From: an uncultured Gammaproteobacteria bacterium
GTDB taxonomy: Bacteria > Patescibacteriota > Patescibacteriia > Magasanikbacterales > UBA922
Direction of reading: 5' to 3'
Assembly: GCA_964597575.1 (NCBI GenBank)
Contig: CAZQXB010000001.1
Span: 274,111 to 338,110 of the forward strand
DNA length: 64,000 nt
This document shows, one piece after another, positions 3,598 through 56,442 of this stretch. The notes under the pieces are model-generated. The model had not been told where the DNA came from. It saw nothing but the letters and a program-made list of their open reading frames with translations, and did no database searches. The translations under genes were made by a program, and so were the position numbers. Position 1 is the first letter of the stretch. Every line of letters starts with the position of its first letter.

Positions 3598-3699
3598 AGA
3601 AGTGCAGGAGTTACAAAAATTATGAAAACCCGATTCGGGAGTTTCAGATAAAAAGAGTATAGCGTAGGGGAGGAAAAAAATCAAGAGGTCATTGCCCGA

Positions 3700-4695
3700 A
3701 TGGGAAAATATCAGTATGATAGTCTCATGTCTGAAGAAAACGGCCCTATTTCTGCCCTATTTCCACCGACCCTTCCCCTGTTTGAAGATGGGTCTTTTTT
3801 GCAGTCACCGGAATGGGCTGATTTTCAACGGAGTGTGGGGAGAAAAGTGATTGCGGTACCCTCGACTAAGAGGTCACTACACGCGTTTAAAAACGAATTG
3901 CCTTTAGGTTTGTCATATCTTTACGTTCCCCAGGCCGATGTCTCTGAAACAGCCTTAAAAGAGCTTATCAAGGCGGGTGAGGAAGAGAAGGCTCTGTTTC
4001 TTCGTATTGAGCCATGGAATCAACCGCTCACCTGCTCGGGCTATACGTTTGTCCGAACGGCATCTCGTCAACCGCAGTATTCTTTGTGTGTCCCTGTTAA
4101 AAAAGAAGAAGAAATGCTTCGGGCAATGCATACAAAGACGCGGTATAATATTGGGCTCTCAGAAAGAAAAGAAGTTCAGGTAAAAAAAATAAAAGACGTC
4201 GATATTTTTTGGAGACTTCTGCAGGATACAACGAAACGCGATGGGTTTCGTGCGCACGGAAAAGAATATTATGAAAAAATGGTAACCATACCAGTGGTCG
4301 AGCAGTATGTGGCATTTGCTAGCGGTGTTCCAGTCGCAAGCATCATCACCATTCGCCACGGTGCCACCGTCGTCTATCTGCACGGGGCATCACTTCATGA
4401 GTATCGAAATCTTATGGCGCCATACGCACTTCAGTGGGCGGCACTGAAAGATGCTTTTTCAAGCGGTGCACTGTGGTACGATATGTGGGGCGTGGCCCCT
4501 CCGGCCGAGAGTCATAATGCTCATGCAGAAACATTCCACACCTATACCTGGGACACGCGACACTCTTTTCACGGCATCACACGGTTTAAGGCGGGGTTCG
4601 GTGGTATACCAGTCACGCATCCGAGTGCTGTGGAAATTCCTCTTCGTCCGTGGCTATATAAATTGTATCGTATCCGTCAGTGTTTTATTGGTTAG
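3700..4695 (+). CDS. FemAB-family peptidoglycan interpeptide-bridge aminoacyltransferase (GNAT-like fold)
   Basis: KTRYNIGLSE and GATVVYLHGAS...YDMWGV motifs reminiscent of FemX/FemAB. Confidence 0.45.
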   Translation: MGKYQYDSLMSEENGPISALFPPTLPLFEDGSFLQSPEWADFQRSVGRKVIAVPSTKRSLHAFKNELPLGLSYLYVPQADVSETALKELIKAGEEEKALFLRIEPWNQPLTCSGYTFVRTASRQPQYSLCVPVKKEEEMLRAMHTKTRYNIGLSERKEVQVKKIKDVDIFWRLLQDTTKRDGFRAHGKEYYEKMVTIPVVEQYVAFASGVPVASIITIRHGATVVYLHGASLHEYRNLMAPYALQWAALKDAFSSGALWYDMWGVAPPAESHNAHAETFHTYTWDTRHSFHGITRFKAGFGGIPVTHPSAVEIPLRPWLYKLYRIRQCFIG

Positions 4696-5291
4696 CTTCT
4701 ATACATCACAAACCTACCGTCTCTGAAACTTCTATGAGTGTTTCCTGGAGTCAAAAAATATTTTTAGTGGTAAATGCCTACATTGGCAAAAAACCGTGGC
4801 TCGATACGCTTATGCGTTTTTTTGCGGTGTGGGGGATCTATGTCCTGATCATCCTCATTTTTGTGTGGAGCCTTTTTCAGTTTTCAGAAGGTGGCTTTGC
4901 CCTTTTCGTGTTTTTAGTGGCGTGCCAAGCCTCCTTTGTTATTGGTCTTGCAGTGAATGCACTTCTCGGGGTTATACGCCCAAGAAAGCGCCCAAAAGAC
5001 GAGTTACCAGGAACTGTGGAGTTAATACAACTTCGTCCGTTTGAATATTGGAAATCTTTTCCGTCCGACCACACCATGGCCGCATTTACGTTTGTATTTG
5101 TGGCGATGATATTTGGCCTGTCTGCATTGTGCTCGGTCTTTTTTCTTTTGTTTGCTCTTCTCATTGGGTGTTCCCGGGTGTATGTTGGAGTTCATTTCCC
5201 TCGCGATATTTTTGGGGGACTCCTTGTGGCTTTTGTTGTTAATGCTGTGGTTGTTTCGCTCATCCCTCCTTTTCTGAATCTTTTTTTCTGA
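4680..5291 (+). CDS. PAP2-family membrane phosphatase (undecaprenyl-diphosphate phosphatase-like)
   Basis: PAP2 motifs KxxxxxxRP (VIRPRKRP), PSDH, and SRVYVGVHFPRD; multiple TM helices. Confidence 0.7.
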   Translation: MFYWLASIHHKPTVSETSMSVSWSQKIFLVVNAYIGKKPWLDTLMRFFAVWGIYVLIILIFVWSLFQFSEGGFALFVFLVACQASFVIGLAVNALLGVIRPRKRPKDELPGTVELIQLRPFEYWKSFPSDHTMAAFTFVFVAMIFGLSALCSVFFLLFALLIGCSRVYVGVHFPRDIFGGLLVAFVVNAVVVSLIPPFLNLFF

Positions 5292-5315
5292 AAGAAGTGC
5301 TGTCGTATCTCTTAT

Positions 5316-6011
5316 ATGAATGCCATTATTTTATGTGGTGGACTCTCGACGAGGCTGGGAGACATCACGAAATCAATTCCCAAAATTTTACTTTCCATTG
5401 GTGATCGCACCATGCTTGATTGGCAACTCGACAAGCTTTCTTCGGTTGGTATTACTGAAGTCGTCATGGCCGCCGGACACTTATCAGAAGTACTTATGAA
5501 AGAGGTGGGGGAGGTGCGTCGAGGAGTTCGTGTGCGTTATGCTGTAGAACCAGCTCGGCTTGGAACAGGCGGGGCAATTCAGTTTGCACTTCAGTATGTG
5601 AAAGATTCTACAGAACCCACCATTATCTTGAATGGAGATATTTTTACTACAGTGCCAATGGCCGACATGGTCCGTGCATTACGGAAGGAGAGCGAGGGTT
5701 TAATTTTAGGGTCTTACGTTGAGGATGCTGCAACATATGGTACCCTAGAAATCGGAGAGCACAACAGACTTCACGCATTTAAAGAAAAAGAAGGCCAGCA
5801 TGTGCCTGGGTACATTAATGGAGGATTTTATATCTTCACTCCAGCTACTACCAAATATTTTCCCCCGGAAGATGCGTTTAGTGTTGAATACGACGTATTT
5901 CCAAAAGTGAAAGACATGGATGTTTACCCCTCAAAACATGCCTGGATCGATATCGGCCAGCCCGAACGCTTGGCGTGGGCGCGGGAGCATTGGCAAGAAT
6001 TCTTAATCTAA
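5316..6011 (+). CDS. Sugar-1-phosphate nucleotidyltransferase (NTP_transferase family)
   Basis: N-terminal ILCGGLSTRLG glycine-rich nucleotide-binding motif. Confidence 0.75.
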   Translation: MNAIILCGGLSTRLGDITKSIPKILLSIGDRTMLDWQLDKLSSVGITEVVMAAGHLSEVLMKEVGEVRRGVRVRYAVEPARLGTGGAIQFALQYVKDSTEPTIILNGDIFTTVPMADMVRALRKESEGLILGSYVEDAATYGTLEIGEHNRLHAFKEKEGQHVPGYINGGFYIFTPATTKYFPPEDAFSVEYDVFPKVKDMDVYPSKHAWIDIGQPERLAWAREHWQEFLI

Positions 6012-6017
6012 TTTTTT

Positions 6018-7049
6018 GTGCGTAGAATAAAAAAAAATTTCATCCTTTTTCTTTCCGTCATTATTGTCTGTATTTTTTTAGCATGGTTTCTGACGTTTCG
6101 CTATAGCCGGGAAAGCGGATCGGTTACCATTACCGTGCTCCCTGCCGAAACGATGCAAGATGTGGCAGAGCATTTAAAAACGAATCGGGCTATTGTGTCT
6201 GAAACACTTTTCGGTGTGTATGCTAGGCTGTCGCGGCTTGACAGAAAGCTCCAAGCTGGAACATTTGTGATCGATTCACCTGCCTCAATTGCTCGTATCA
6301 CGAAAGCACTCACTGAGCCTCAAATTCGGGAAGAGCGGGTAATAACAATTATCCCTGGCTGGTCACTGCGTGATATCGCAACGTATTTCGAAAAAGAAGG
6401 GATTGCGACAAGTGGAGAACTGTACGCACTAACAGGAAAACCTGCGGAAAAAAAATCAGGTCAAGTCGGGTTTGGTGTCCCGGTACAAATTCTTAGCGCC
6501 TTACCAAGTGATATTAGTATGGAAGGATATTTGGCACCCAATACATACCGTATTTTTGTAGGTGAGCCACTGATGCAAACCCTCGAGCGCTTAGTCGCAG
6601 AACGTGAAGAAGAAATAACACCAGAACTTCTTCAAGGAATTACGAAAAGCGGTCGAACGTTTCATCAGATTTTAACGATGGCAAGTATCTTAGAGCGCGA
6701 AGTGCCGCATGAGAATGATATGGCGAAGGTGGCAGATTTATTTTGGCGACGGTTCGATGCCGACTGGGGTTTGCAAGCCGATTCCACGGTTCATTATGCT
6801 ACCGGAAAAGAAGGTGATGTATTTACGACCGCTCGTGATCGCGCCTCTGATAATGAATGGAATACGTATAAGTGGAAAGGTCTGCCGCCTGGGCCAATTT
6901 CGACACCGAGTATTGAAGCAATTCGTGCGGCTATTTTTCCAGAAAAAAATGATGCGTGGTTTTTTCTCACAACGCTCGATACTGGGGAAGTGAAGTATGG
7001 CAAGACTCTTGAAGAGCACAATGCAAATGTACGAAAATATTTACGATAA
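6018..7049 (+). CDS. mltG: Endolytic murein transglycosylase MltG/YceG family
   Basis: N-terminal TM helix; YceG-like motifs LTMASILEREV and LQADSTVHYA. Confidence 0.75.
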   Translation: MRRIKKNFILFLSVIIVCIFLAWFLTFRYSRESGSVTITVLPAETMQDVAEHLKTNRAIVSETLFGVYARLSRLDRKLQAGTFVIDSPASIARITKALTEPQIREERVITIIPGWSLRDIATYFEKEGIATSGELYALTGKPAEKKSGQVGFGVPVQILSALPSDISMEGYLAPNTYRIFVGEPLMQTLERLVAEREEEITPELLQGITKSGRTFHQILTMASILEREVPHENDMAKVADLFWRRFDADWGLQADSTVHYATGKEGDVFTTARDRASDNEWNTYKWKGLPPGPISTPSIEAIRAAIFPEKNDAWFFLTTLDTGEVKYGKTLEEHNANVRKYLR

Positions 7050-7084
7050 AAATAAAAAATGATTAAGACCTATTTACATATTGT

Positions 7085-8224
7085 ATGTCCAAAGCACTTT
7101 CATACCACAAAAAATTGAAAGGAAAAATTGAAGTTATTTCGCGTGCAAAACTGAAAAATAGAAATGATTTACGATTAGCCTACACCCCTGGGGTTGCTGA
7201 GCCATGCTTAGAAATTCAAAAAGATGTTTCTAAACTATACGACTATACCCGTAAAGGAAATTTAGTTGCCGTCATTACCGACGGAAGTGCGGTTTTAGGG
7301 TTGGGGAACATTGGCCCAGAAGCAGGGCTGCCGGTTATGGAAGGGAAGTGCGCTTTATTTAAACGCTTTGCTAATGTCGATGCGTTTCCTGTCGCCATAA
7401 AGACGCAAGACGTGGATGAGTTTGTGAGAACAGTCGAATTAATTGCGCCTATGTTTGGGGGAATTAATTTGGAAGATATTGCTGCGCCGCGGTGTTTTGA
7501 AATCGAGGAAAAATTAAAACAAAAATTGGATATTCCTGTATTTCATGATGATCAACATGGCACGGCTATTGTTTGTCTGGCTGGGCTTATTAATGCACTC
7601 AAAGTGGTTAAAAAGAGCATGAAAGATATTACCGTTGTGGTGAACGGACTTGGGGCGGCGGGTGTAGCAATTACCAAGCTTCTTCTTTTGTCCGGCGTAG
7701 GTGAGATGCGCCTTCTTGATTCGAAAGGTATCATTTTTGATGGCCGTGCGGAGGTAGATGGTGTGAAAGCCGAACTCGCCAAAAAAACGAATCGTGAAAA
7801 ACGATCAGGCGGTTTAGCTGAAGCACTTCAGGGGGCGGATGTATTTATTGGGGTGAGTAAACCAAACTTGGTAACGGAAGATATGGTTCGTTCGATGAAC
7901 GAAAAATCGATTCTTTTTGCTATGGCGAATCCCGTGCCTGAAATTATGCCCGATGTGGCGAAAAAGGCCGGGGCGTTTGTTGTGGCAACGGGCCGAAGTG
8001 ATTTCCCGAATCAAATTAATAATGTGCTGGCTTTTCCTGGAATTTTTCGAGGTGCGCTTGATGCTCGGGTGCGATTTATTACCGAAGAGATGAAGCTGGC
8101 AGCTGCGTATGCATTGGCGAAAGCCGTAAAAAAACCAACCGCAAATTATATTATTCCAGATCCTTTTGATAAACGTGTGGCAAAGCTCGTGGCCAAAGCA
8201 GTGAAAAATAAAGCGAAGAAATAA
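7085..8224 (+). CDS. NAD(P)-dependent malic enzyme (short form)
   Basis: LAYTPGVAEPC, VITDGSAVLGLGNIGP and GINLEDI motifs of malic enzymes. Confidence 0.8.
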   Translation: MSKALSYHKKLKGKIEVISRAKLKNRNDLRLAYTPGVAEPCLEIQKDVSKLYDYTRKGNLVAVITDGSAVLGLGNIGPEAGLPVMEGKCALFKRFANVDAFPVAIKTQDVDEFVRTVELIAPMFGGINLEDIAAPRCFEIEEKLKQKLDIPVFHDDQHGTAIVCLAGLINALKVVKKSMKDITVVVNGLGAAGVAITKLLLLSGVGEMRLLDSKGIIFDGRAEVDGVKAELAKKTNREKRSGGLAEALQGADVFIGVSKPNLVTEDMVRSMNEKSILFAMANPVPEIMPDVAKKAGAFVVATGRSDFPNQINNVLAFPGIFRGALDARVRFITEEMKLAAAYALAKAVKKPTANYIIPDPFDKRVAKLVAKAVKNKAKK

Positions 8225-8231
8225 TAAGCAT

Positions 8232-9287
8232 ATGCGAACTGACGATTTCGATTTTTTTCTTCCAGATGAACGGATTGCACAATCACCAATTGAGCCGCGG
8301 GATCATTCAAAACTCATGGTGATTGATCGAAACAAGAAAACGATTGAACATCGGCAGTTTTTTGATCTCTTGTCGTACCTTCGTCCGGGTGATCTTCTTG
8401 TTTGGAATAATTCGAAGGTGTTTCGAGCGCGGTTGTTTGGTCGTTTATTTAGTCCATCCGGAGAACCTCTTCGTGAGCATGCAAAACCCATTGAAATTTT
8501 TCTCGTCCGTCCTACAGAAAATACTGGGGTTTGGCATGCTCTCGCAAAACCTGCCAAACATGTGAGTCATGGTATGCAAATTCGTTTTGCATCAGATTTT
8601 GCCTGTGAAGTGGTGGTAAAAAAAGATGATGGAACACTACTTGTTCAGTTTTCTTACAATGAAGCGACGGTTCGTGTGAAAGCAAATCAATATGGAGAAG
8701 TTCCTCTTCCCCCGTATATTAAAAAGGGCGTGAATGAACTTGTGGCATACCAAACGATCTATGCTCGGGAGGAGGGTTCGGTAGCAGCGCCTACCGCGGG
8801 TTTTCATTTCACCCCCGAACTTATTGAAAAAATAAAAGAGAAAGGTGTCTCGTTTGCAGAGGTGACTCTCCATGTAGGGCTAGGCACTTTTTTACCTGTA
8901 AAAAGTGAGCAGATTGAGGATCATACCATGCATAGTGAATGGGTGGAGCTGCCAGACGCAACAGTTCAGGCTATTCATACTACGAAAGCCAGCGGTGGAA
9001 GAGTTATCGCTGTCGGCACGACGACAGTCCGTACTTTAGAGGGGGTCGCGAAGTATGCTACTGGCCTTGCCGCCTATGCAGGGGATATTAATATGTTTAT
9101 TACCCCAGGATTTCATTTTCAGGTGGTCGATGCGCTTGTCACAAATTTTCATCTTCCAAAATCAACACTCCTTATGCTGGTGTCGGCATTTGCCAATGAC
9201 CGAGAATTTATCTTGCGTGCCTACGCTGAGGCGGTGGAAAAAGAATATCGATTTTTTAGTTTTGGCGATGCTATGTTTATTGTTTAG
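8232..9287 (+). CDS. queA: S-adenosylmethionine:tRNA ribosyltransferase-isomerase
   Basis: Typical QueA N-terminus (DFDFFLPDERIAQ) and VIAVGTTTVRTLE. Confidence 0.9.
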   Translation: MRTDDFDFFLPDERIAQSPIEPRDHSKLMVIDRNKKTIEHRQFFDLLSYLRPGDLLVWNNSKVFRARLFGRLFSPSGEPLREHAKPIEIFLVRPTENTGVWHALAKPAKHVSHGMQIRFASDFACEVVVKKDDGTLLVQFSYNEATVRVKANQYGEVPLPPYIKKGVNELVAYQTIYAREEGSVAAPTAGFHFTPELIEKIKEKGVSFAEVTLHVGLGTFLPVKSEQIEDHTMHSEWVELPDATVQAIHTTKASGGRVIAVGTTTVRTLEGVAKYATGLAAYAGDINMFITPGFHFQVVDALVTNFHLPKSTLLMLVSAFANDREFILRAYAEAVEKEYRFFSFGDAMFIV

Positions 9288-9290
9288 TTT

Positions 9291-9698
9291 ATGAACATCT
9301 TTTTTTCTTCGCTCGTGGCGTTACCGATATTTGTAGCCCTCGACTTTTTGTGGCTCGGCATTATTATGCGTTCTTTTTACGTGCGCGAACTTGGCCCCTT
9401 GGCGAGGCAGGGTATTCATTATCCAAGTGCTTTTGTAGTGTATGTGCTTATGGCGCTCAGTGTTGTGGTGTTTGTTTTGCCCCGGTTTTTCGGAATGCCG
9501 GTAACATTAAAAGTATTTGCGCTCGGTGCACTTCTCGGTTTTTTAATCTACGGAATTTACGATTTCACTAATTACGCCACTCTTGCTCATTGGTCATGGC
9601 GTTTTATGGTCGTTGATATTCTTTGGGGAGGGGTCGTGTATGGCGTAACAAGCATACTAACTCTCTCAATTCTTCGATGGTTAAAAATATTTTCCTAA
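9291..9698 (+). CDS. DUF2177-like small membrane protein
   Basis: Four predicted TM segments; ATGA overlap with the queA stop. Confidence 0.5.
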   Translation: MNIFFSSLVALPIFVALDFLWLGIIMRSFYVRELGPLARQGIHYPSAFVVYVLMALSVVVFVLPRFFGMPVTLKVFALGALLGFLIYGIYDFTNYATLAHWSWRFMVVDILWGGVVYGVTSILTLSILRWLKIFS

Positions 9699-9835
9699 AA
9701 GGTGATTTTTAACGTGAATTCTGTGCGATGGTAGTCAGGGGGCAGGGGAACGATAAGAAGCCACAAGGGTCACCAAATTAGGGTGGACAAGGAGATGGTG
9801 AAGATAAAGAAGAATAGTGACTCTCGCAAAAAATA

Positions 9836-9878
9836 ATGCAAAAAAAGAATGGTGCTTAGTTGCACCATTCTTTTTTTA
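9836..9878. terminator. Bidirectional terminator between convergent genes
   Basis: A-run, gaatggtgc-ttagt-gcaccattc hairpin, T-run. Confidence 0.6.
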
Positions 9879-11031
9879 GTTCCAAAAATCTTTTTTCTTT
9901 GATACTTTCTCGAATGTCTTTTGTCAGAGAAAGAAAGAAGTGGAGGTTGTGAATCGTTGCCAAACGGTAGGCGAGAAGTTCTTCAGCTCGAAAAAGATGG
10001 TGCAAATAACTCCTGGTAAATGTGCGGCAAGTGCTGCATGCACACGTTGGGTCAATAGGTTTTTTATCTTCACGAAATTCTGCGTTGGTAATAGAGAAGC
10101 GATATTTATTTTCTTTCGTCCCTCCAGTTTTTGGAGAAATAAATAAACTTCCATTCCGCGCCATCCGGCTTGGGGAAACACAGTCGAACATGTCTACTCC
10201 ATGTTCCACAACATCAAACAAATCACTTGGTGAAAAACCAAGGCCCATCGTGTAGCGTGGTTTATTTTCTGGAAGAAGTGGAGAGAGGTAGGAAAGAATA
10301 TCCCGTGTCGCTTCCATGTTGTATCCGATGGATTCTCCTCCTATGGCAATTCCGTCAAACGGCATGGCAGTAACAGCTTTTGCGCTCGCTTCGCGGAGTT
10401 CTTTGTGGTTTCCTCCTTGGATAATGCCGAATAAAAATTGACGATATCCGTGATACGACGTATTTTTTTGGTGTTCTTCAATACAACGCGCGGCCCAGCG
10501 GTGGGTGCGCTCCATGGCTTTTGTGGCGTAGGCGGTGTCGGCCGAATCCGGAGTGCATTCATCGAATGCCATAATAATATCTGCTCCTAATTTGTGCTGC
10601 ACCTCAATAGCGGATTCTGGAGTGAAGCGATGTTTGCTTCCGTCGATGTGTGAAGTAAATGTGACTCCGTCTTCGTCAATTGAAGTAAGTTTGTTTGCTC
10701 CTGCTTCTTTTTTTTCTTTTTGTGCACCTAAAGAAAAAACTTGAAATCCACCACTATCCGTTAAGATAGGCTTACCCCACTGCATGAATGTGTGCAATCC
10801 ACCGGCATTGCCAATGAGATCTTCTCCCGGGCGTAAATGGAGGTGATAGGTATTCGCTAAAATAATTTGCGCACCCAGTTCGTTTAGGTCGCGTGGGTCA
10901 AGGCTCTTTACGGTCGCCTGAGTTCCGACCGGCATAAATATGGGCGTTTCAATGTCGCCATGATCCGTATGAATAACCCCGGTGCGTGCACGAGTTTTGG
11001 AATCCTGTGAGGTGATTTCGAAAAAAGACAT
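9856..11031 (-). CDS. tgt: Queuine tRNA-ribosyltransferase
   Basis: MSFFEITSQD...ETPIFMPVGT start and the zinc-site region CxCxxC match Tgt. Start placed at the internal ATG 11031. Confidence 0.9.
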   Translation of the reverse strand: MSFFEITSQDSKTRARTGVIHTDHGDIETPIFMPVGTQATVKSLDPRDLNELGAQIILANTYHLHLRPGEDLIGNAGGLHTFMQWGKPILTDSGGFQVFSLGAQKEKKEAGANKLTSIDEDGVTFTSHIDGSKHRFTPESAIEVQHKLGADIIMAFDECTPDSADTAYATKAMERTHRWAARCIEEHQKNTSYHGYRQFLFGIIQGGNHKELREASAKAVTAMPFDGIAIGGESIGYNMEATRDILSYLSPLLPENKPRYTMGLGFSPSDLFDVVEHGVDMFDCVSPSRMARNGSLFISPKTGGTKENKYRFSITNAEFREDKKPIDPTCACSTCRTFTRSYLHHLFRAEELLAYRLATIHNLHFFLSLTKDIRESIKEKRFLELKKEWCN

Positions 11032-11098
11032 AGAAGAATAGTTGACCATAACAATACGGACTTTTGCGCCGCTTGGCAAGGTGGTCTACAATAGGGGT

Positions 11099-11905
11099 AT
11101 GTCAAAATCCACTCAAACACTCAATGCCGGTCTTATTGTAACGAGCATTCTTCTTTTGGGAGGAATTGTTTGGGTGTGGCCAAGCACGCAAGAATCGAGT
11201 GCCCCTGTAATAAAAACACCCTTTGTCGTTACGCGTCCCTCGACAACAACACCGCCTGCGCCGAGTACAAAACCATCTCCAGTGCCGCCTCCAACTCCGG
11301 AAACCCCATTTCCTGTACCCCCACCTACGGCTTCAATTAAAAATGAGGTACGTCTCGCGGTACCGTTTACTTCGCAAGCTCCAGAAAAAAATTGGGACGA
11401 GCCCTGGCAAAATGCCTGTGAAGAAGCAGCTCTTCTTATGCTTGATGCGTACTATAAGAAGTATCAGCTTTCACCCATTTTTGCTCGAGATGAGCTTCTC
11501 AAAGTTCTCGCCTATGAAGAAAATTTGGGATATGGGGGGAGTATTGATATGGAAAAAATAAAGAAGGTTGCGATTGAAACACTTCACTTAGACCGACACG
11601 GTACGTTAAAGATTATAGAGGATCCGGGTGTCGAAGATATTAAAGCCTATATTGCTGCGAAGAAACCAGTACTTGTGGTTGCTGACGGGAAGAAGTTGCC
11701 TAACCCTAATTTTCAAGGCGGTGGGCCGGCCTATCACGCTCTTATTATCACGGGGTATACGGAAGATACATTTATTACCAATGACCCAGGCACCCGACTC
11801 GGGAAAGATTTTGAATATCACATAGAAGATTTGATGGGTGCGATTCGTGACTGGAATGGGGGAAATGTAAAAACAGGAAGACGAGTTATTTTGGTGGTGG
11901 AGTAG
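11099..11905 (+). CDS. Membrane-anchored protein with Pro/Thr-rich linker and C39-like (Peptidase_C39_2) cysteine-peptidase domain
   Basis: Signal/TM region, then PxP-rich linker. Q..NW..PWQNAC then HALIITGY then NDPG follow the Gln/Cys/His/Asp order of the C39_2 family. Confidence 0.5.
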   Translation: MSKSTQTLNAGLIVTSILLLGGIVWVWPSTQESSAPVIKTPFVVTRPSTTTPPAPSTKPSPVPPPTPETPFPVPPPTASIKNEVRLAVPFTSQAPEKNWDEPWQNACEEAALLMLDAYYKKYQLSPIFARDELLKVLAYEENLGYGGSIDMEKIKKVAIETLHLDRHGTLKIIEDPGVEDIKAYIAAKKPVLVVADGKKLPNPNFQGGGPAYHALIITGYTEDTFITNDPGTRLGKDFEYHIEDLMGAIRDWNGGNVKTGRRVILVVE

Positions 11906-11915
11906 CAGTCCTAGC

Positions 11916-12084
11916 TTGACAGCTTTGATTCGTCGTGTTTTACTATTTTTATATATGAATACAAATCAGAAAAAATCTCTTTCAGTCCAGGCTTGGTGGG
12001 CCACGAATCGTCTGTCGTGGTGTTTCTGATTTGGTAAGATTATTTCTTAAAATCAAGCGCCCCGATAGTGGGGCGTTTCTATTT
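11916..12084 (+). promoter_or_regulatory. Candidate leader-peptide attenuator: promoter, 24-codon ORF with three Trp codons (two in tandem), intrinsic terminator
   Basis: TTGACA at 11916-11921. ORF 11955-12029 reads MNTNQKKSLSVQAWWATNRLSWCF. Hairpin cgcccc-gatagt-ggggcg plus T-run at 12058-12084. Stem aaatcagaaa/tttctgattt brackets the Trp codons. Confidence 0.35.
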
Positions 12085-12158
12085 GGTTTCGGCGAGAGGA
12101 GGAGGGTCTCGCTGGCACCAAATGATGAAATATCGTTTGCGTCCAGAGGGAGGTTCGA

Positions 12159-12926
12159 ATGTCGAACAAGGAAGCTTTTTTTGCTCTGCACACGTTCAAT
12201 CCGGCACTTGCCGGAGCCGTGGGCGCTGAGAGGGAGTTGTTTATCATCGAGAACGGAGTGCTGGTGCCGCGGGCTCCAGAAGTTCTGTCAGCCCTGTCTC
12301 ATGATCCTCGGTGGACGTACGAGCTGAGCGCTTGTCAGGTGGAATGCCGTACCACGCCAACGCATGATCCCTGGGAGTTGGTACGCGAACTGTGCGAACT
12401 TCGGCATCAAGTTGTCGGGGTCGCGAGACCGCTTGGGCTCGACGTGCTCTCTATGGAAGTGGCCCCGGCTACGATTCCACGAGAGGTATATCCCGACCCG
12501 AGATATGCGACCCTCTCAACCACCTTGCCTGAGGATCGGTTCCTTGCCGCGCTTCGTGTTGCCGGCACGCACGTTCATGTTGGTTGCGCGAATCTGGAAG
12601 AGGCTGTGAGAGTTCATGATGCACTCGTGGAGCATCTCGAGGAGCTTATCGCTCTCGGAAACTTTTCGGGCGGTGAGCGAATTCGTTTGTATGAGCGTGT
12701 CACGGCTCCGCATACCTATCCGCATTGTTACGGATCAGTAGATGCCTACTACGAAGATGCGGTTCGCTGCAATTTCACTTTGCAGCTTCGCAATAATTGG
12801 CATTTGATCCGCATTTCTCGGTACGGCACGGTTGAGGTAAGAGCGTTTGGTTCCCCTTTGTGTAACAGTAAAGTCGGGGACTGGGCTGCTCGTATCCAAG
12901 AGATCCGTGCCAACGCCATACGGTAG
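12159..12926 (+). CDS. Carboxylate-amine ligase of the YbdK/GCS2 (glutamate-cysteine ligase family 2) type; high-GC codon usage
   Basis: ERELFII..ELSACQVECRTTP, HVHVGC and GTVEVRAFGSP match GCS2 motifs. RBS agggagg. Shorter than E. coli YbdK at the C-terminus. Confidence 0.7.
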   Translation: MSNKEAFFALHTFNPALAGAVGAERELFIIENGVLVPRAPEVLSALSHDPRWTYELSACQVECRTTPTHDPWELVRELCELRHQVVGVARPLGLDVLSMEVAPATIPREVYPDPRYATLSTTLPEDRFLAALRVAGTHVHVGCANLEEAVRVHDALVEHLEELIALGNFSGGERIRLYERVTAPHTYPHCYGSVDAYYEDAVRCNFTLQLRNNWHLIRISRYGTVEVRAFGSPLCNSKVGDWAARIQEIRANAIR

Positions 12927-13013
12927 TACGAGAGGAGAAAAAATCTCAGACTCTCGTACTACCTCCCCCTCCAATGTATTTCCCTTTAAAATATGATACG
13001 ATAGAAGCGTTTT

Positions 13014-13766
13014 ATGAAACCCATTCTTCTTGTACAATTTCGTACAGACCTAACTGGCCCACATGAAATCTCTTGCTTTAGAAGTGAATTTGATGCGGTA
13101 GGCGCTTCTCTTGAAACAGTTAATGCTGTTACTGAAGCGCTTCCCTCTGATCTTTCTATCTATTCAGGAATTATCTTGGGAGGAAGTGGCGAATTTTATT
13201 TATCTGAAGGTCATGGTGCTGGGACATGGCAAGAAGCGACATTTGCATTGATCGAACGAGCAAGACAACAGTCTGTTCCCCTTTTGGGTATTTGTTTTGG
13301 TTTTCAACTTCTAGGGATGGCGTATGGAGCAACTATCGTGCGGAATGAAAGTATGAGGGAAACCGGTACTTTTCTCGTTACGCAATATAAAGAAGGGGCG
13401 AGTGATGAGCTTTTGTCTTTGGCACCAGAAACATTCTTAGCGCAATTTGCTCACAAAGATTCTTTGATTAATTTTCCACCCTCGGTCATTGTACTTGCTA
13501 AATCAGAACGTGTTGCAGTTGAGGCATTTCGTGTGAGGGGTAGGGATCAGTGGGGCTTCTTGTTCCATCCGGAGTTAAATAAAAAACGTATGAGCGAACG
13601 ATTGTCCTTACTCCCAAGTTATGCTGGTGGTAATTCAGTTGATGCTCTTTTAGAGTCTTTTCACGATACCCCGGCTGCCACCGATCTTCTTCATGCTTTT
13701 ATTAAGTATGCCCAGAATCGAAATGGAAGTATTTCCCTCTCTCAAGAGGAAGCCGTTACGGTATGA
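13014..13766 (+). CDS. Class-I glutamine amidotransferase domain protein (GMP-synthase-like GATase / C26-type)
   Basis: Catalytic Cys motif LLGICFGFQLL and FHPE histidine motif. Confidence 0.75.
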   Translation: MKPILLVQFRTDLTGPHEISCFRSEFDAVGASLETVNAVTEALPSDLSIYSGIILGGSGEFYLSEGHGAGTWQEATFALIERARQQSVPLLGICFGFQLLGMAYGATIVRNESMRETGTFLVTQYKEGASDELLSLAPETFLAQFAHKDSLINFPPSVIVLAKSERVAVEAFRVRGRDQWGFLFHPELNKKRMSERLSLLPSYAGGNSVDALLESFHDTPAATDLLHAFIKYAQNRNGSISLSQEEAVTV

Positions 13767-15853
13767 TTGATTTTGCCAAAGAGCTTAATAGTGAACAGTT
13801 GGCCGTCGTAGAACACGGTGATGGCCCGTGTTTGGTTTTGGCAGGCGCTGGCAGTGGAAAAACCAGAACGATTACGTACCGCGTGGCGTACTTACTTCAA
13901 AACGGTGTTCTTCCTGAAGAAATTTTACTTGTCACATTTACGAATAAAGCCGCGAGAGAAATGACCAGTCGTGTGGAAATGCTCACCAACATGACGAAGC
14001 GTCTTCCCTGGTCAGGAACGTTTCACCATATTGGATTTCGGTTACTCAAACAGTACGCAGCTCTTTTGGGGTATCAACCGAATTTTACGATTCTCGATAG
14101 TGAAGATAGTTTAGACTTACTGAAACTCTGTTTAAAGTACGAAGGAATTGAGCGCAAAGATAAACATTTTCCATCTCCCCAAGTACTTCATGGTCTTATT
14201 AGTTTTGCGCGGAATGCTGAAACCACGCTTGAACACGTGCTTGATGCTAAACATCCACAATGGCTTTCTATTTCCGAAACACTGGTTCGCGTAGCCGAAA
14301 GTTATGAACAAAGAAAACGAAAAGCGAATGCGATGGATTTTGACGATCTCCTCACGAACACCTATTTGCTTCTGTTAAAAAACGAACGTGTACGGGAAAA
14401 GTTTGCCACACAGTTTCGCTATGTGCTCGTTGACGAGTATCAGGATACGAATAAAATCCAAGCTTCAATTGTGCGGCTTTTTTCATCACACCACAAAAAT
14501 TTACTTGTAGTAGGGGATGATGCGCAGAGTATCTACTCATTCCGTGCCGCAGATATTGCGAACATCTTAGATTTTTCTAAAACATTTCCGGAAGCGCAGG
14601 TATTTCGTTTGGAAACAAATTATCGTTCTACTCCAAATATTTTGTCGCTCGCAAATGAGGTGATTGCGAATAACATAAAGCAGCACAGAAAAACACTCAA
14701 AAGTGTTTTGCCGGAATTTGCTCGACCAGAAGTACATGCCTTTACCGATGCGCGTGAGGAGGCGGAATTTGTGGTAAGTCGAATCCAAGAATTACAGGAA
14801 GAAGGCGTACCCCTTCAGGAAATGGCAGTATTATTTCGCGCAGCATTTCATTCCCAAGCGATCGAAATGGAGTTAACCAAACGGGGTATTCCGTACGACT
14901 ACCGTGGTGGAACGCGCTTTTTCGAGCGCGCACACGTGAAAGATGTGTTAGCGTACCTTCGTATTTTCCATAATTCTAAAGACACGATTGCGTGGAGTCG
15001 TGTTCTTGCTATGCAATCGGGAATTGGTCCCGCAGCCATACAGAAAATTCTTCAAGTGCTCGAGATGTTCTCAACACCTCCTACATTTTTTGATATCCGT
15101 CATTTGGGCGCAGAACTTCCTGCGCGAGCACAGCTCGGGTGGAACGATGTGCTCAAAGCCTGGGAGGCTGTTGAGGCGACGAAGACAGAAGCCGGAGCAG
15201 TACTTCCGGGTGATGCTATCTGGGCGATTTTAGAAAGCGTCTATCGGACGTATGCAGAACATGAATTTCCGGACGCTCGGGAGCGATTGCAAGATATTGA
15301 GCAGTTAGCGAACTTTGCAGAGGCGGCAAATAAACGGGAAGAGGATCAATTGAAAGCACTCGAAATATTTTTGGCGGAAGCAAGTTTACAAGAAAGTTTT
15401 ACTGCCGCTCAGGCTCGTAAAACTTTGGATGCAGAAGAAAAGCTCACTCTCTCGACTATCCATCAGGCAAAAGGCTTAGAGTGGGAAGCGGTATTCGTGG
15501 TGCATCTTGCAGCTGGGCAATTTCCTTCTGACCGATCGCTCAAAACAGATCAGGGGCTCGAAGAAGAGCGACGGCTTTTTTATGTGGCGGTCACCCGGGC
15601 CAAAAAACATTTGGCCATGTCGTATCCGCTTGTTGGTGGCTTTGATACGACCCTTCAAGGCCCCAGTCTCTTTTTAGAGGAAATTGACCGTGAGTTATAT
15701 GATGATCACGGGGTGCGCTCGATCGCACCACTTACCGCATTTCGAGATTTAGCAGACCCTATAGAGGGGATTACCTACGAAGCGGAAGATGAACCGTTTT
15801 CTACCAAAAAGAAGCGCCCAACCTCATTTTTGTCGAGTATTGATGATCTTTGA
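13763..15853 (+). CDS. ATP-dependent DNA helicase UvrD/PcrA family
   Basis: Walker A AGAGSGKTRTI, VDEYQDTN, and C-terminal helicase motifs. Confidence 0.9.
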   Translation: MIDFAKELNSEQLAVVEHGDGPCLVLAGAGSGKTRTITYRVAYLLQNGVLPEEILLVTFTNKAAREMTSRVEMLTNMTKRLPWSGTFHHIGFRLLKQYAALLGYQPNFTILDSEDSLDLLKLCLKYEGIERKDKHFPSPQVLHGLISFARNAETTLEHVLDAKHPQWLSISETLVRVAESYEQRKRKANAMDFDDLLTNTYLLLLKNERVREKFATQFRYVLVDEYQDTNKIQASIVRLFSSHHKNLLVVGDDAQSIYSFRAADIANILDFSKTFPEAQVFRLETNYRSTPNILSLANEVIANNIKQHRKTLKSVLPEFARPEVHAFTDAREEAEFVVSRIQELQEEGVPLQEMAVLFRAAFHSQAIEMELTKRGIPYDYRGGTRFFERAHVKDVLAYLRIFHNSKDTIAWSRVLAMQSGIGPAAIQKILQVLEMFSTPPTFFDIRHLGAELPARAQLGWNDVLKAWEAVEATKTEAGAVLPGDAIWAILESVYRTYAEHEFPDARERLQDIEQLANFAEAANKREEDQLKALEIFLAEASLQESFTAAQARKTLDAEEKLTLSTIHQAKGLEWEAVFVVHLAAGQFPSDRSLKTDQGLEEERRLFYVAVTRAKKHLAMSYPLVGGFDTTLQGPSLFLEEIDRELYDDHGVRSIAPLTAFRDLADPIEGITYEAEDEPFSTKKKRPTSFLSSIDDL

Positions 15854-16994: not shown

Positions 16995-17183
16995 ATGCGC
17001 ACCCAATTCGAGATCGATCCTGATGCGCCCAAGCCAGATCAAGATCGGGCCGCTCAGCTGCTGAGCTCTCTCGGCTCCTCCGGGATGGAGCGACGCCTCT
17101 TGGCACGGGATCTGCCGGAGGGAATCGTCGCCATCAGTGATGGGGACGAGATTCGTCGGGAGGATCTTCTTCGGGAGAAGTGA
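16995..17183 (+). CDS. Small acidic hypothetical protein (62 aa), high-GC codon usage
   Basis: RBS aaggag 8 nt upstream; GC3-rich codons unlike neighbouring genes. Confidence 0.3.
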   Translation: MRTQFEIDPDAPKPDQDRAAQLLSSLGSSGMERRLLARDLPEGIVAISDGDEIRREDLLREK

Positions 17184-17199
17184 TCAAGGAGGGCGCAGG

Positions 17200-17538
17200 G
17201 TGCTTCCTGCGGATCGGTCTCGTGCCATGCACGCGACAGGTCGGAAGAGCAATTGCGTTGCCTTCCCCAACGACATTCGGACCACGGTCCGGTTGTTGTG
17301 CGGGAAAGAAACAATTTTACCAAAGAGAGAGGGGTATCGCTTGAAAAGTGGTACTGGTAAGGTAAAGAGGGGTGATAGGCGGATGACGCCTGCTGATCAC
17401 GACGAGCTCAGCCTCATGAGAGCGGCTCGCGAGGAGGCTATGAAGCGGCCAGAGGCTTCTAGAGTAGTGCGGCATCTGGAGGATGCGATCAAGATGAAGG
17501 AGGAGTGGATCAATGGACAACGGGGAAGCAAACCCTAG
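17200..17538 (+). CDS. Small basic hypothetical protein, high-GC (GTG start after aaggaggg; alternatively a 51-aa product from ATG 17383)
   Basis: RBS followed by an ORF with GC3-rich codons. Confidence 0.25.
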   Translation: MLPADRSRAMHATGRKSNCVAFPNDIRTTVRLLCGKETILPKREGYRLKSGTGKVKRGDRRMTPADHDELSLMRAAREEAMKRPEASRVVRHLEDAIKMKEEWINGQRGSKP

Positions 17539-18003: not shown

Positions 18004-18077
18004 CGGGCTATAGCGCAGTTGGCTAGCGCGCATGCATGGGGTGCATGAGGTCGTGGGTTCAAGTCCCGCTAGCCCGA
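18004..18077 (+). tRNA. tRNA-Pro (anticodon GGG)
   Basis: Acceptor CGGGCTA/TAGCCCG, anticodon stem CATGC/GCATG with loop ATGGGGT, T-arm GTGGG-TTCAAGT-CCCGC. Confidence 0.85.
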
Positions 18078-25971: not shown

Positions 25972-27505
<1,534 letters not shown>

Positions 27506-56358: not shown

Positions 56359-56442
56359 TGGGCGAGGAGGGGGTCGAACCCTCAAGACCTTGCGATCGCG
56401 GGATTTTGAGTCCCGTGCGTCTGCCAGTTCCGCCACTCGCCC
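56359..56442 (-). tRNA. tRNA-Leu (anticodon CAA), long variable arm
   Basis: Reverse complement GGGCGAGTGGCGGAACTGGCAGACGCACGGGACTCAAAATCCCG...GGTTCGACCCCCTCCTCGCCCA. Confidence 0.85.

Follow-up and report, generated by a model that had tools for sequence, protein, structure and literature searches.

A minimal carboxylate-amine ligase beside a GGP1-like glutamine amidotransferase in a Patescibacterium: a candidate make-and-break pair for an amide bond

What might two adjacent genes of sharply different base composition do together in a bacterium with a reduced genome? The question is raised by a stretch of 64,000 nucleotides (the window, in what follows) from an uncultured Patescibacterium (GenBank assembly GCA_964597575.1, contig CAZQXB010000001.1, positions 274,111 to 338,110). 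On its plus strand lie an intact open reading frame (ORF) of 255 amino acids (aa) at 12159-12926, encoding a carboxylate-amine ligase with the glutamine synthetase (GS) fold, and an intact ORF of 250 aa at 13014-13766, encoding a protein with the class-I glutamine amidotransferase (GATase) fold that resembles peptidase C26. Both frames lie exactly where a preliminary description of this DNA had placed them, and all of the motifs it quoted were found in their translations; by residue, the ligase carries GAERE at 22, HVHVGC at 138, and GTVEVR at 223, and the GATase carries GGSGE at 56, GICFGFQLL at 92, and FHPE at 184. The genes around the pair are queA, a DUF2177 gene, tgt, a gene for a secreted C39-like peptidase, uvrD, and ndk. 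This neighbourhood, along with the organism names attached to homologues, indicates a genome of Patescibacteria. The reading that we favour, with modest confidence, is that the two genes encode a small cytosolic pair, one enzyme that would make an amide bond, most probably a gamma-glutamyl one, and another that would break it.

Regarding the first gene, its product matches the Pfam family GCS2 (PF04107) with 47.8 bits against a cutoff of 21, over model positions 26-156 of 291. The best-known relative is E. coli YbdK (PDB 1R8G and 1TT4), with which the ligase shares the GS-fold core; G22-A-E24-R-E26, H138-V-H140, and G223-T-V-E226-V-R228 align to the YbdK motifs GhExE, HVH, and GTVExR, as does an R-Y pair. 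The window protein is nonetheless only about 20% identical to YbdK, has 255 aa versus 372, and fails all the NCBIfam YbdK/GshA cutoffs (TIGR02050, 61.0 vs. 176.4 bits; NF010040, 52.1 vs. 425; NF010043, 63.7 vs. 409). These models are covered to about position 260 of roughly 380, and a profile of the ligase's own family aligns to YbdK residues 6-259 of 372. Absent is the C-terminal helical domain of YbdK, about 110 aa long; the preliminary description had noted the lack of some 100 C-terminal residues, and the alignment, which stops at YbdK residue 259, agrees with it. The AlphaFold2 (AF2) model is a compact single domain with a YbdK-like core (pLDDT 96.7, pTM 0.92), and a Foldseek search of the PDB with this model returned YbdK (1tt4, 1r8g) as the best match, with a TM-score of 0.73-0.76 and about 20% identity, followed by plant glutamate-cysteine ligase and then by glutamine synthetases (GlnA).

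The short ligase has a large family of similarly short relatives. The homologues found number at least 267; almost all have 246-265 aa, and most come from metagenome-assembled genomes (MAGs) of Patescibacteria. When 1.84 billion representatives were searched exhaustively with a profile, 188 clusters at 50% identity (E <= 1e-30) emerged, nearly all with members of about 250-300 aa. In a collection of species-representative genomes, at least 146 stretches encode a relative of the short ligase, those named being Patescibacteria MAGs. The preliminary description had called such a module unexpected in a reduced-genome organism; these 146 stretches and 188 clusters indicate instead that it is common there. 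An alignment of 42 sequences contains 20 invariant residues, all 20 of which are kept by the window ligase; the invariant set includes G22-x-E24-x-E26, E55, Q60, E62, R115-Y116, H140, R174, R218, and G223-T-x-E226-x-R228, the first of these being the GhExE element defined as an Mg/ATP signature by Iyer, Burroughs and Aravind in 2008 (PMC2588565). Among the 62 columns that are at least 90% conserved, the window ligase deviates at 6 (family median 2, maximum 14). Its closest non-self relative has 46% identity; the protein is its own cluster at 50% identity and an isolated deep branch in a neighbour-joining tree. Pfam GCS2 is matched by 31 of the 42 members and PF12224 (Amidoligase_2), which is probably the family of the Iyer-Aravind amidoligases compared below, by 2 of the 42; the window protein matches GCS2 only.

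Homologue lengths, the cluster search, the retained invariant residues, and the AF2 model together identify the shortness of the ligase as a family trait and not as a sign of decay, and the family-wide shortness, the kept residues, and the confident compact model rule out a decaying YbdK fragment. To judge from alignment and model, the ligase is an intact member of its own minimal GS-fold family, here called mini-GCS2, which belongs to the GCS2 superfamily at the domain level only. The family is, by its sequence record, Patescibacteria-wide and has so far been seen almost only in Patescibacteria MAGs; among the GS-fold carboxylate-amine ligases found in this analysis, it is the smallest. A literature search on Patescibacteria and glutamate-cysteine ligase returned nothing relevant.

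The second gene encodes a protein that matches Pfam GATase (PF00117) with 58.8 bits (cutoff 22.8) and Peptidase_C26 (PF07722) with 39.7 bits (cutoff 20.5), so that Pfam bears out the family assignments proposed earlier for both proteins. It passes neither the GMP synthase models (TIGR00888, 60.6 vs. 172.15 bits; PRK00758, 59.7 vs. 198) nor the TrpG/PabA models (TIGR00566, 32.2 vs. 121; PRK08007, 31.9 vs. 332; PRK07765, 46.7 vs. 308). The best NCBIfam matches, near full length and also below cutoff, are PRK09065 (127.5 vs. 205) and PRK07567 (101.1 vs. 264), which are models of uncharacterised standalone glutamine amidotransferases. The 65 homologues found, mostly of 235-275 aa, have a QFRTD..HE motif towards the N terminus in common and are extended by helices at the C terminus. 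In an alignment of 38 sequences, C94 and H185 of the triad Cys94-His185-Glu187 are invariant and E187 occurs in at least 90%; in the window protein, the triad lies within GICFG and H185-P-E187.

When the GATase profile was run against PDB sequences, full-length matches were obtained only with Thermotoga maritima TM1158 (1O1Y) and Arabidopsis gamma-glutamyl peptidase 1 (GGP1; E 1.8e-26, positions 21-218, about 20% identity), while GuaA subunit A aligned only to the core, positions 75-193. Likewise, Foldseek placed the AF2 model (pLDDT 94.9) closest to TM1158 (1o1y, TM-score 0.75) and GGP1 (0.75-0.76), with GuaA subunit A at 0.60-0.69 and PuuD/SpuA at about 0.66. The structure of GGP1 has the triad C100/H192/E194 and the S1 residue Q104, within an S1 pocket that is common to glutaminases and gamma-glutamyl peptidases (PMC12958103); in the window GATase these four residues map to C94/H185/E187 and Q98. 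The idea that the protein is a piece of GuaA, TrpG, or PabA was rejected, its scores being far under the cutoffs and its extensions being shared with TM1158 and GGP1 and absent from the 188-aa GuaA subunit A; the protein is instead a standalone enzyme of the TM1158/GGP1 type. The preliminary description had named a GATase fragment of this kind and a decaying ligase as what would tell against its proposal, and the analysis found neither.

The genomic surroundings of the ligase family bear on its function. A total of 80 genomic loci with mini-GCS2 relatives were fetched, ORFs were called, neighbours were clustered and annotated, and linkage statistics were computed over +/-10 kb, where 37% of the sampled bases lie within 3 kb of a mini-GCS2 gene. 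Among 81 loci, 58 have an amide-bond enzyme no farther than 3 kb from mini-GCS2. All GATase1 matches fall within this distance (17/17, p = 5e-8), as do 27 of the 28 AstE/AspA matches (p = 5e-11), all 7 matches to gamma-glutamyl cyclotransferase (GGCT; p = 1e-3), and all 4 to class-II GATases (p = 2e-2). The position directly after mini-GCS2 (+1), on the same strand and 5-150 nt away, has an occupant that varies by locus. It may be a zinc deacylase of the AstE/AspA type (PF24827; within 3 kb in 27 loci, in most of them at +1), a gamma-glutamyl cyclotransferase of the AIG2/GGCT kind (7 loci), a class-II, N-terminal nucleophile (Ntn) GATase (4 loci within 3 kb, 3 at +1), or a GATase1 of the window type, which is found in the window and in two further loci, L061 and L077, at gaps of about 87-88, 94, and 76 nt, respectively; in further loci a 465-aa GCS2 paralogue takes this place. 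Since L061 and L077 nest in the neighbour-joining tree among sisters with AstE at +1, the comparison suggests that the hydrolytic partner has been swapped repeatedly and that the partners are interchangeable. The role of the partner would be to cleave the product of the ligase, because the interchangeable AstE/AspA and GGCT enzymes cannot donate ammonia. A separate clade has a conserved four-gene operon (loci L005, L018, L020 at about 7900-12200, L027, L039, L045, and L080) that runs from a 311-aa GCS-like protein without a Pfam match through a GATase1 of a second subfamily and mini-GCS2 to a 465-aa GCS2; three GS-fold ligase homologues with one GATase suggest that a small peptide or amide is put together step by step.

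Seen from the GATase, the picture is one of a resident gene next to a variable slot. A metagenome scan for relatives with the generic pattern PxLGICFGx[QH] gave, among the matches listed, mostly distant GATases and few informative ones. The closest relatives, with 43-51% identity (L162, L163, and L165), have the same order as the window: a C39-like peptidase, a variable slot, and then GATase-uvrD-ndk; in L082 the order is M20 peptidase followed by GATase-uvrD. In L162 the slot holds a PGM1-like ATP-grasp ligase (4534-5907), with a second one 3' of the GATase (6962-8188); in L163 it holds an ATP-grasp-like protein (3666-4739) and two M20 peptidases, with an aminotransferase of class IV (D-amino-acid type) encoded on the other strand; and in L165 it holds a methyltransferase and an M20 peptidase. 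The 457-aa and 464-aa slot proteins of the relatives gave no match to the GS-fold ligase profiles made in this analysis; one of the two, that of L162, and the 357-aa L163 protein have weak ATP-grasp/PGM1 (pheganomycin-type) matches. More distant GATases lie directly 5' of full-length GCS2 genes of 441 and 443 aa (L166 and L167), and no ligase is nearby in L168, L083, L086, L088, and L090. Because several relatives have no ligase next door, a window-type GATase can evidently work as a standalone enzyme, to go by its gene contexts. Gene order indicates that the GATase gene is a resident of the backbone, where it forms a block with uvrD and ndk, and that ATP-dependent ligases and peptidases tend to gather beside it. 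In the window, the uvrD-like helicase gene (13763-15853, plus strand; an ORF call that serves here as context) has a start codon that overlaps the GATase stop codon, as ATGA at 13763-13766, and the stop codon of uvrD overlaps the ndk start at 15850-15853. It is odd for a repair helicase to be linked to a GATase-fold enzyme, yet the order is conserved: it recurs with ndk in L162, L163, and L165 and as GATase-uvrD also in L082.

As to how the ligase gene came to its place, composition and repeats are informative. The gene has a G+C content of 0.555 and a third-position G+C content (GC3) of 0.562, which is z = +3.5 relative to 56 backbone ORFs of the window (GC3 0.406 +/- 0.045), while the GATase gene, with a G+C content of 0.430 and a GC3 of 0.303 (z = -2.3), lies at the AT-rich edge of this backbone. 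The contrast reported in the preliminary description is thus real, though 'strongly GC3-rich' is true only relative to the gene's own genome. By one and the same measure, the GC3 excess over neighbours is +0.14 at the window ligase and on average +0.04 over 74 mini-GCS2 loci, several of which also show an excess; the G+C excess is a feature of this locus and is not typical of the family. The gene is flanked by a direct repeat of 12 nt without mismatch, AGAAAAAATCTC, of which the 64-kb window has just two copies: copy 1 (11968-11979), a candidate left insertion boundary, lies 63 nt past the stop of the C39-like peptidase gene, and copy 2 (12936-12947), a candidate right boundary, lies 10 nt past the ligase stop. 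Shuffling produced a 12-mer common to both spacers in 0.06% of cases, and of 1698 controls from real sequence 9 had one. Because of the GC3 deviation, the C39...GATase-uvrD-ndk synteny with its variable slot, and the flanking repeat, the ligase gene was probably inserted horizontally in a variable slot 5' of a resident GATase gene; the donor was probably another, more GC-rich Patescibacterium. A phage or defence origin of the genes was considered and dropped: tblastn found no match in 50,697 phage records, PADLOC gave none, and PHROGs returned generic GATase matches only.

The DNA on either side of the ligase gene contains inverted repeats. The 253-nt spacer upstream (11906-12158) has a folding z of -3.5, none of 200 shuffles being equally stable, and contains an 11-nt inverted repeat (11962-11972 / 12023-12033) and a strong G+C-rich terminator-like hairpin with 10 pairs, a loop of 4, and a T-rich tail (12055-12078, plus strand, terminator-like on the minus strand too), which lies 80 nt 5' of the ligase start and at which the G+C content climbs. 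This spacer could be the terminator of the C39-peptidase gene, a piece of the inserted DNA, or a regulatory leader. No riboswitch or known RNA was detected in it at Rfam gathering scores, matches being at chance level (E 0.3-0.9), and no sigma-70-like promoter was found in the ligase leader; a Shine-Dalgarno-like GAGGGAGG (12146-12153, plus strand) stands 5 nt 5' of the ATG. Downstream, a perfect 13-nt inverted repeat with a 16-nt loop (12922-12963, plus strand) spans the ligase stop codon and carries the second copy of the direct repeat in its loop.

The make-and-break proposal can be put as a sequence of steps. By analogy with YbdK and GCS2, the mini-GCS2 ligase would bind Mg-ATP through its GhExE, HVH, and GTVExR motifs and would phosphorylate a carboxylate, probably the gamma-carboxylate of glutamate, to an acyl-phosphate; an amine would then attack this intermediate to give an amide. 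The GATase would cleave the gamma-glutamyl amide via a Cys94 thioester, releasing glutamate and the amine. The ligase gene would have entered 5' of the resident GATase gene at a site that, in relatives, is taken by other ATP-dependent ligases or M20 peptidases. Comparative genomics lends backing to the make-and-break idea of the preliminary description, through the linkage of mini-GCS2 to GATase1, AstE/AspA, GGCT, and class-II GATases and through the frequent position of window-type GATases beside GCS2 or ATP-grasp ligases. Direct observation covers the folds, the catalytic motifs, the conservation within the families, the linkage statistics, the deviating composition, and the flanking repeat; the substrate, the catalysis, and the action of both proteins on the same compound in this organism are inferred. 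Several observations weigh against this interpretation. Neither subfamily has a biochemically characterised member. The fold alone does not separate a glutaminase from a gamma-glutamyl peptidase, since the S1 pocket is common to both, and because AstE/AspA enzymes act on N-acyl-Asp/Glu bonds, the bond that the partners have in common could be one other than gamma-glutamyl. Gene context from other clades may not carry over to the window ligase, which is an orphan lineage; of the window-type GATases sampled, roughly one in two stands without a ligase next to it; and the GATase-uvrD linkage is as consistent as that of GATase and ligase. Finally, given their contrasting composition and the hairpin in the spacer of about 87 nt between them, the two genes need not be co-transcribed.

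These last points also feed the view that the two genes are neighbours without a shared function, the GATase being a standalone housekeeping enzyme of the backbone, a hydrolase or a glutaminase, and the ligase, rich in G+C, having simply landed in a permissive slot to act on an unrelated substrate. The direct repeat around a gene of deviating composition, the hairpin in the intergenic spacer, a GATase-uvrD-ndk synteny that does not depend on the ligase, the GATase relatives that lack a ligase nearby, and the orphan status of the window ligase all count in its favour. However, mini-GCS2 followed at 76-94 nt by a window-type GATase has also arisen in L061 and L077, which belong to two unrelated mini-GCS2 lineages, the slot in relatives repeatedly holds ligases or peptidases and not random genes, and GATase1 matches in the ligase loci never lie farther than 3 kb away (17/17). 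We consider mere adjacency a serious possibility, albeit a rather improbable one.

A closer functional tie would exist if the two proteins were subunits of a glutamine-dependent amidotransferase, in which the GATase channels ammonia to mini-GCS2 for the conversion of a carboxylate to a primary amide, following the logic of CarA/CarB, GatD/MurT, or GatCAB. The intact triad and Gln/Glu S1 pocket of the GATase fold would suit such a role, the ATP-dependent ligases repeatedly found next to window-type GATases are of three sorts (mini-GCS2, full-length GCS2, and ATP-grasp), and in one mini-GCS2 clade a second GATase1 subfamily shares a conserved operon with three GS-fold ligases. On the other hand, the +1 slot of sister lineages is filled by AstE/AspA or GGCT, which are incapable of supplying ammonia; co-occurrence is not obligate, window-type GATases also occurring where no ligase adjoins them, in translational coupling with M20 peptidases or uvrD; and GGP1, the sole functionally characterised full-length structural match, is a hydrolase. 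We know of no GCS2/YbdK-family enzyme with a glutaminase subunit, and we judge an amidotransferase unlikely. Far less probable still is the reading in which a YbdK pseudogene, decaying and cut short, stands beside a piece or subunit of GuaA, TrpG, or PabA whose partner is elsewhere: the lack of roughly 110 C-terminal residues relative to YbdK and a faint resemblance to models of GMP synthase subunit A and of TrpG/PabA might have hinted at it, but the length is common to nearly all of the homologues and clusters, the ligase keeps its invariant residues and gives a compact confident model, and the GATase scores lie far below the respective cutoffs. The make-and-break pair remains the reading that we prefer.

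When compared to known systems, the pair has several partial counterparts. The amidoligases described by Iyer, Burroughs and Aravind (2008) likewise have a GS-fold ligase beside a gene for a GATase-fold thiol peptidase or an Aig2/GGCT protein, in neighbourhoods predicted to make glutathione-like peptides or metabolites (PMC2588565). They belong, however, to another family from proteobacteria and firmicutes, while mini-GCS2 is shorter, occurs in Patescibacteria, and has AstE/AspA and class-II GATases as extra partners. In the PuuA/PuuD system, which gamma-glutamylates putrescine in E. coli, and the similar IpuC/IpuF, a GS-fold gamma-glutamyl-amine ligase is combined with a C26 hydrolase. The analogy with PuuA/PuuD drawn in the preliminary description holds only at the level of function; PuuA is of the GlnA type, whereas the window ligase is of the GCS2 type, and the window GATase is nearer to TM1158/GGP1 than to PuuD. 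No genes for PuuB/PuuC-type oxidases or dehydrogenases lie nearby, the neighbours being the C39-like peptidase gene, uvrD, and ndk, and of that pathway only the C26-type hydrolase component is present. In ergothioneine biosynthesis, EgtA is a GCS2 ligase and EgtC a GATase-type gamma-glutamyl hydrolase, and in the degradation of glutathione by yeast, Dug3 is a GATase that acts with the M20 peptidase Dug2; EgtC and Dug3 are class-II (Ntn) GATases, unlike the window protein. Neighbours of the kinds seen in these two systems, GATase-type hydrolases and M20 peptidases, occur around the mini-GCS2 and window-type GATase families, and genes for EgtB and EgtD are absent from the locus. With Arabidopsis GGP1 (PDB 9K7I-L) and TM1158, the window GATase shares the full-length architecture, the fold, the triad, and the S1 Gln; GGP1 differs in that its substrates, in plants, are glutathione and glutathione conjugates, TM1158 is itself uncharacterised, and identity is about 20%. 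The pair thus resembles the PuuA/PuuD, IpuC/IpuF, EgtA/EgtC, and Iyer-Aravind modules and is a member of none of them; what is new here is an uncharacterised, minimal GCS2 subfamily, largely restricted to the candidate phyla radiation (CPR), with swappable hydrolase partners.

Regarding the possible substrate, the AstE-partner clade of mini-GCS2 has neighbours with a recurrent theme. It often adjoins tryptophanyl-tRNA synthetase (26 loci by neighbour clustering), with two copies in, e.g., L051, L064, and L078; other neighbours are a fusion of a chorismate-mutase-like protein with an S-adenosylmethionine (SAM)-methyltransferase (11 loci), tryptophan 2,3-dioxygenase (4 loci), and a pyridoxal phosphate (PLP) decarboxylase (3 loci). 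The loci concerned are L014, L028, L034, L038, L042, L051, L054, L062-L065, L068, L071, L077, L078, and L081. Such tryptophan or aromatic-amine neighbours might point to the substrate of the ligase. A bolder and quite doubtful extension would make mini-GCS2 a minimal 'writer' specific to CPR/Patescibacteria with interchangeable 'erasers' (AstE/AspA, GGCT, class-II GATase, GATase1) in a reversible gamma-glutamylation. Its target could be a new low-molecular-weight gamma-glutamyl thiol or metabolite, or a macromolecule such as a protein or cell-wall peptide, as with PafA/Dop; the neighbours would hint at an aromatic amine.

Further features were recorded in the window and in the sampled loci. 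Between 51885 and 56188, four ORFs (452, 250, 228, and 221 aa) have a G+C content of 0.54-0.60 and a GC3 of 0.58-0.78, compared to about 0.41 in the backbone, and no Pfam matches; they adjoin a tRNA gene at 56359-56442 (minus strand), and the segment resembles a GC-rich island of foreign origin that entered the genome at a tRNA. A smaller GC-rich patch is formed by a 133-aa ORF at 17137-17538 (plus strand; GC3 0.63, no Pfam match) just 5' of a tRNA gene at 18004-18077. A complete 16S rRNA gene is present at 25972-27504, and neither 23S nor 5S rRNA was detected in the 64 kb. Unlinked rRNA genes are often reported for CPR bacteria, which fits this arrangement. Many 'binchicken' co-assembly MAGs in the sample (L004, L008, L014, L017, and others) carry typical Patescibacteria genes under the titles 'uncultured Gammaproteobacteria' or 'Candidatus Saccharibacteria', which are probably placeholder or incorrect labels.

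CPR/Patescibacteria genomes are stripped of most biosynthesis, and an enzyme family that is specific to the CPR and widespread in it is a clue to the lifestyle of these bacteria. The window itself documents the probable insertion of a gene in a variable slot beside a conserved hydrolase and corrects the impression of a pseudogene. With its 255 aa, the mini-GCS2 core provides a compact model of what a GS-fold ligase minimally needs, and the pairing of the family with four unrelated kinds of amide-cleaving enzyme leads to the testable idea that a gamma-glutamyl compound is made and recycled in these organisms.

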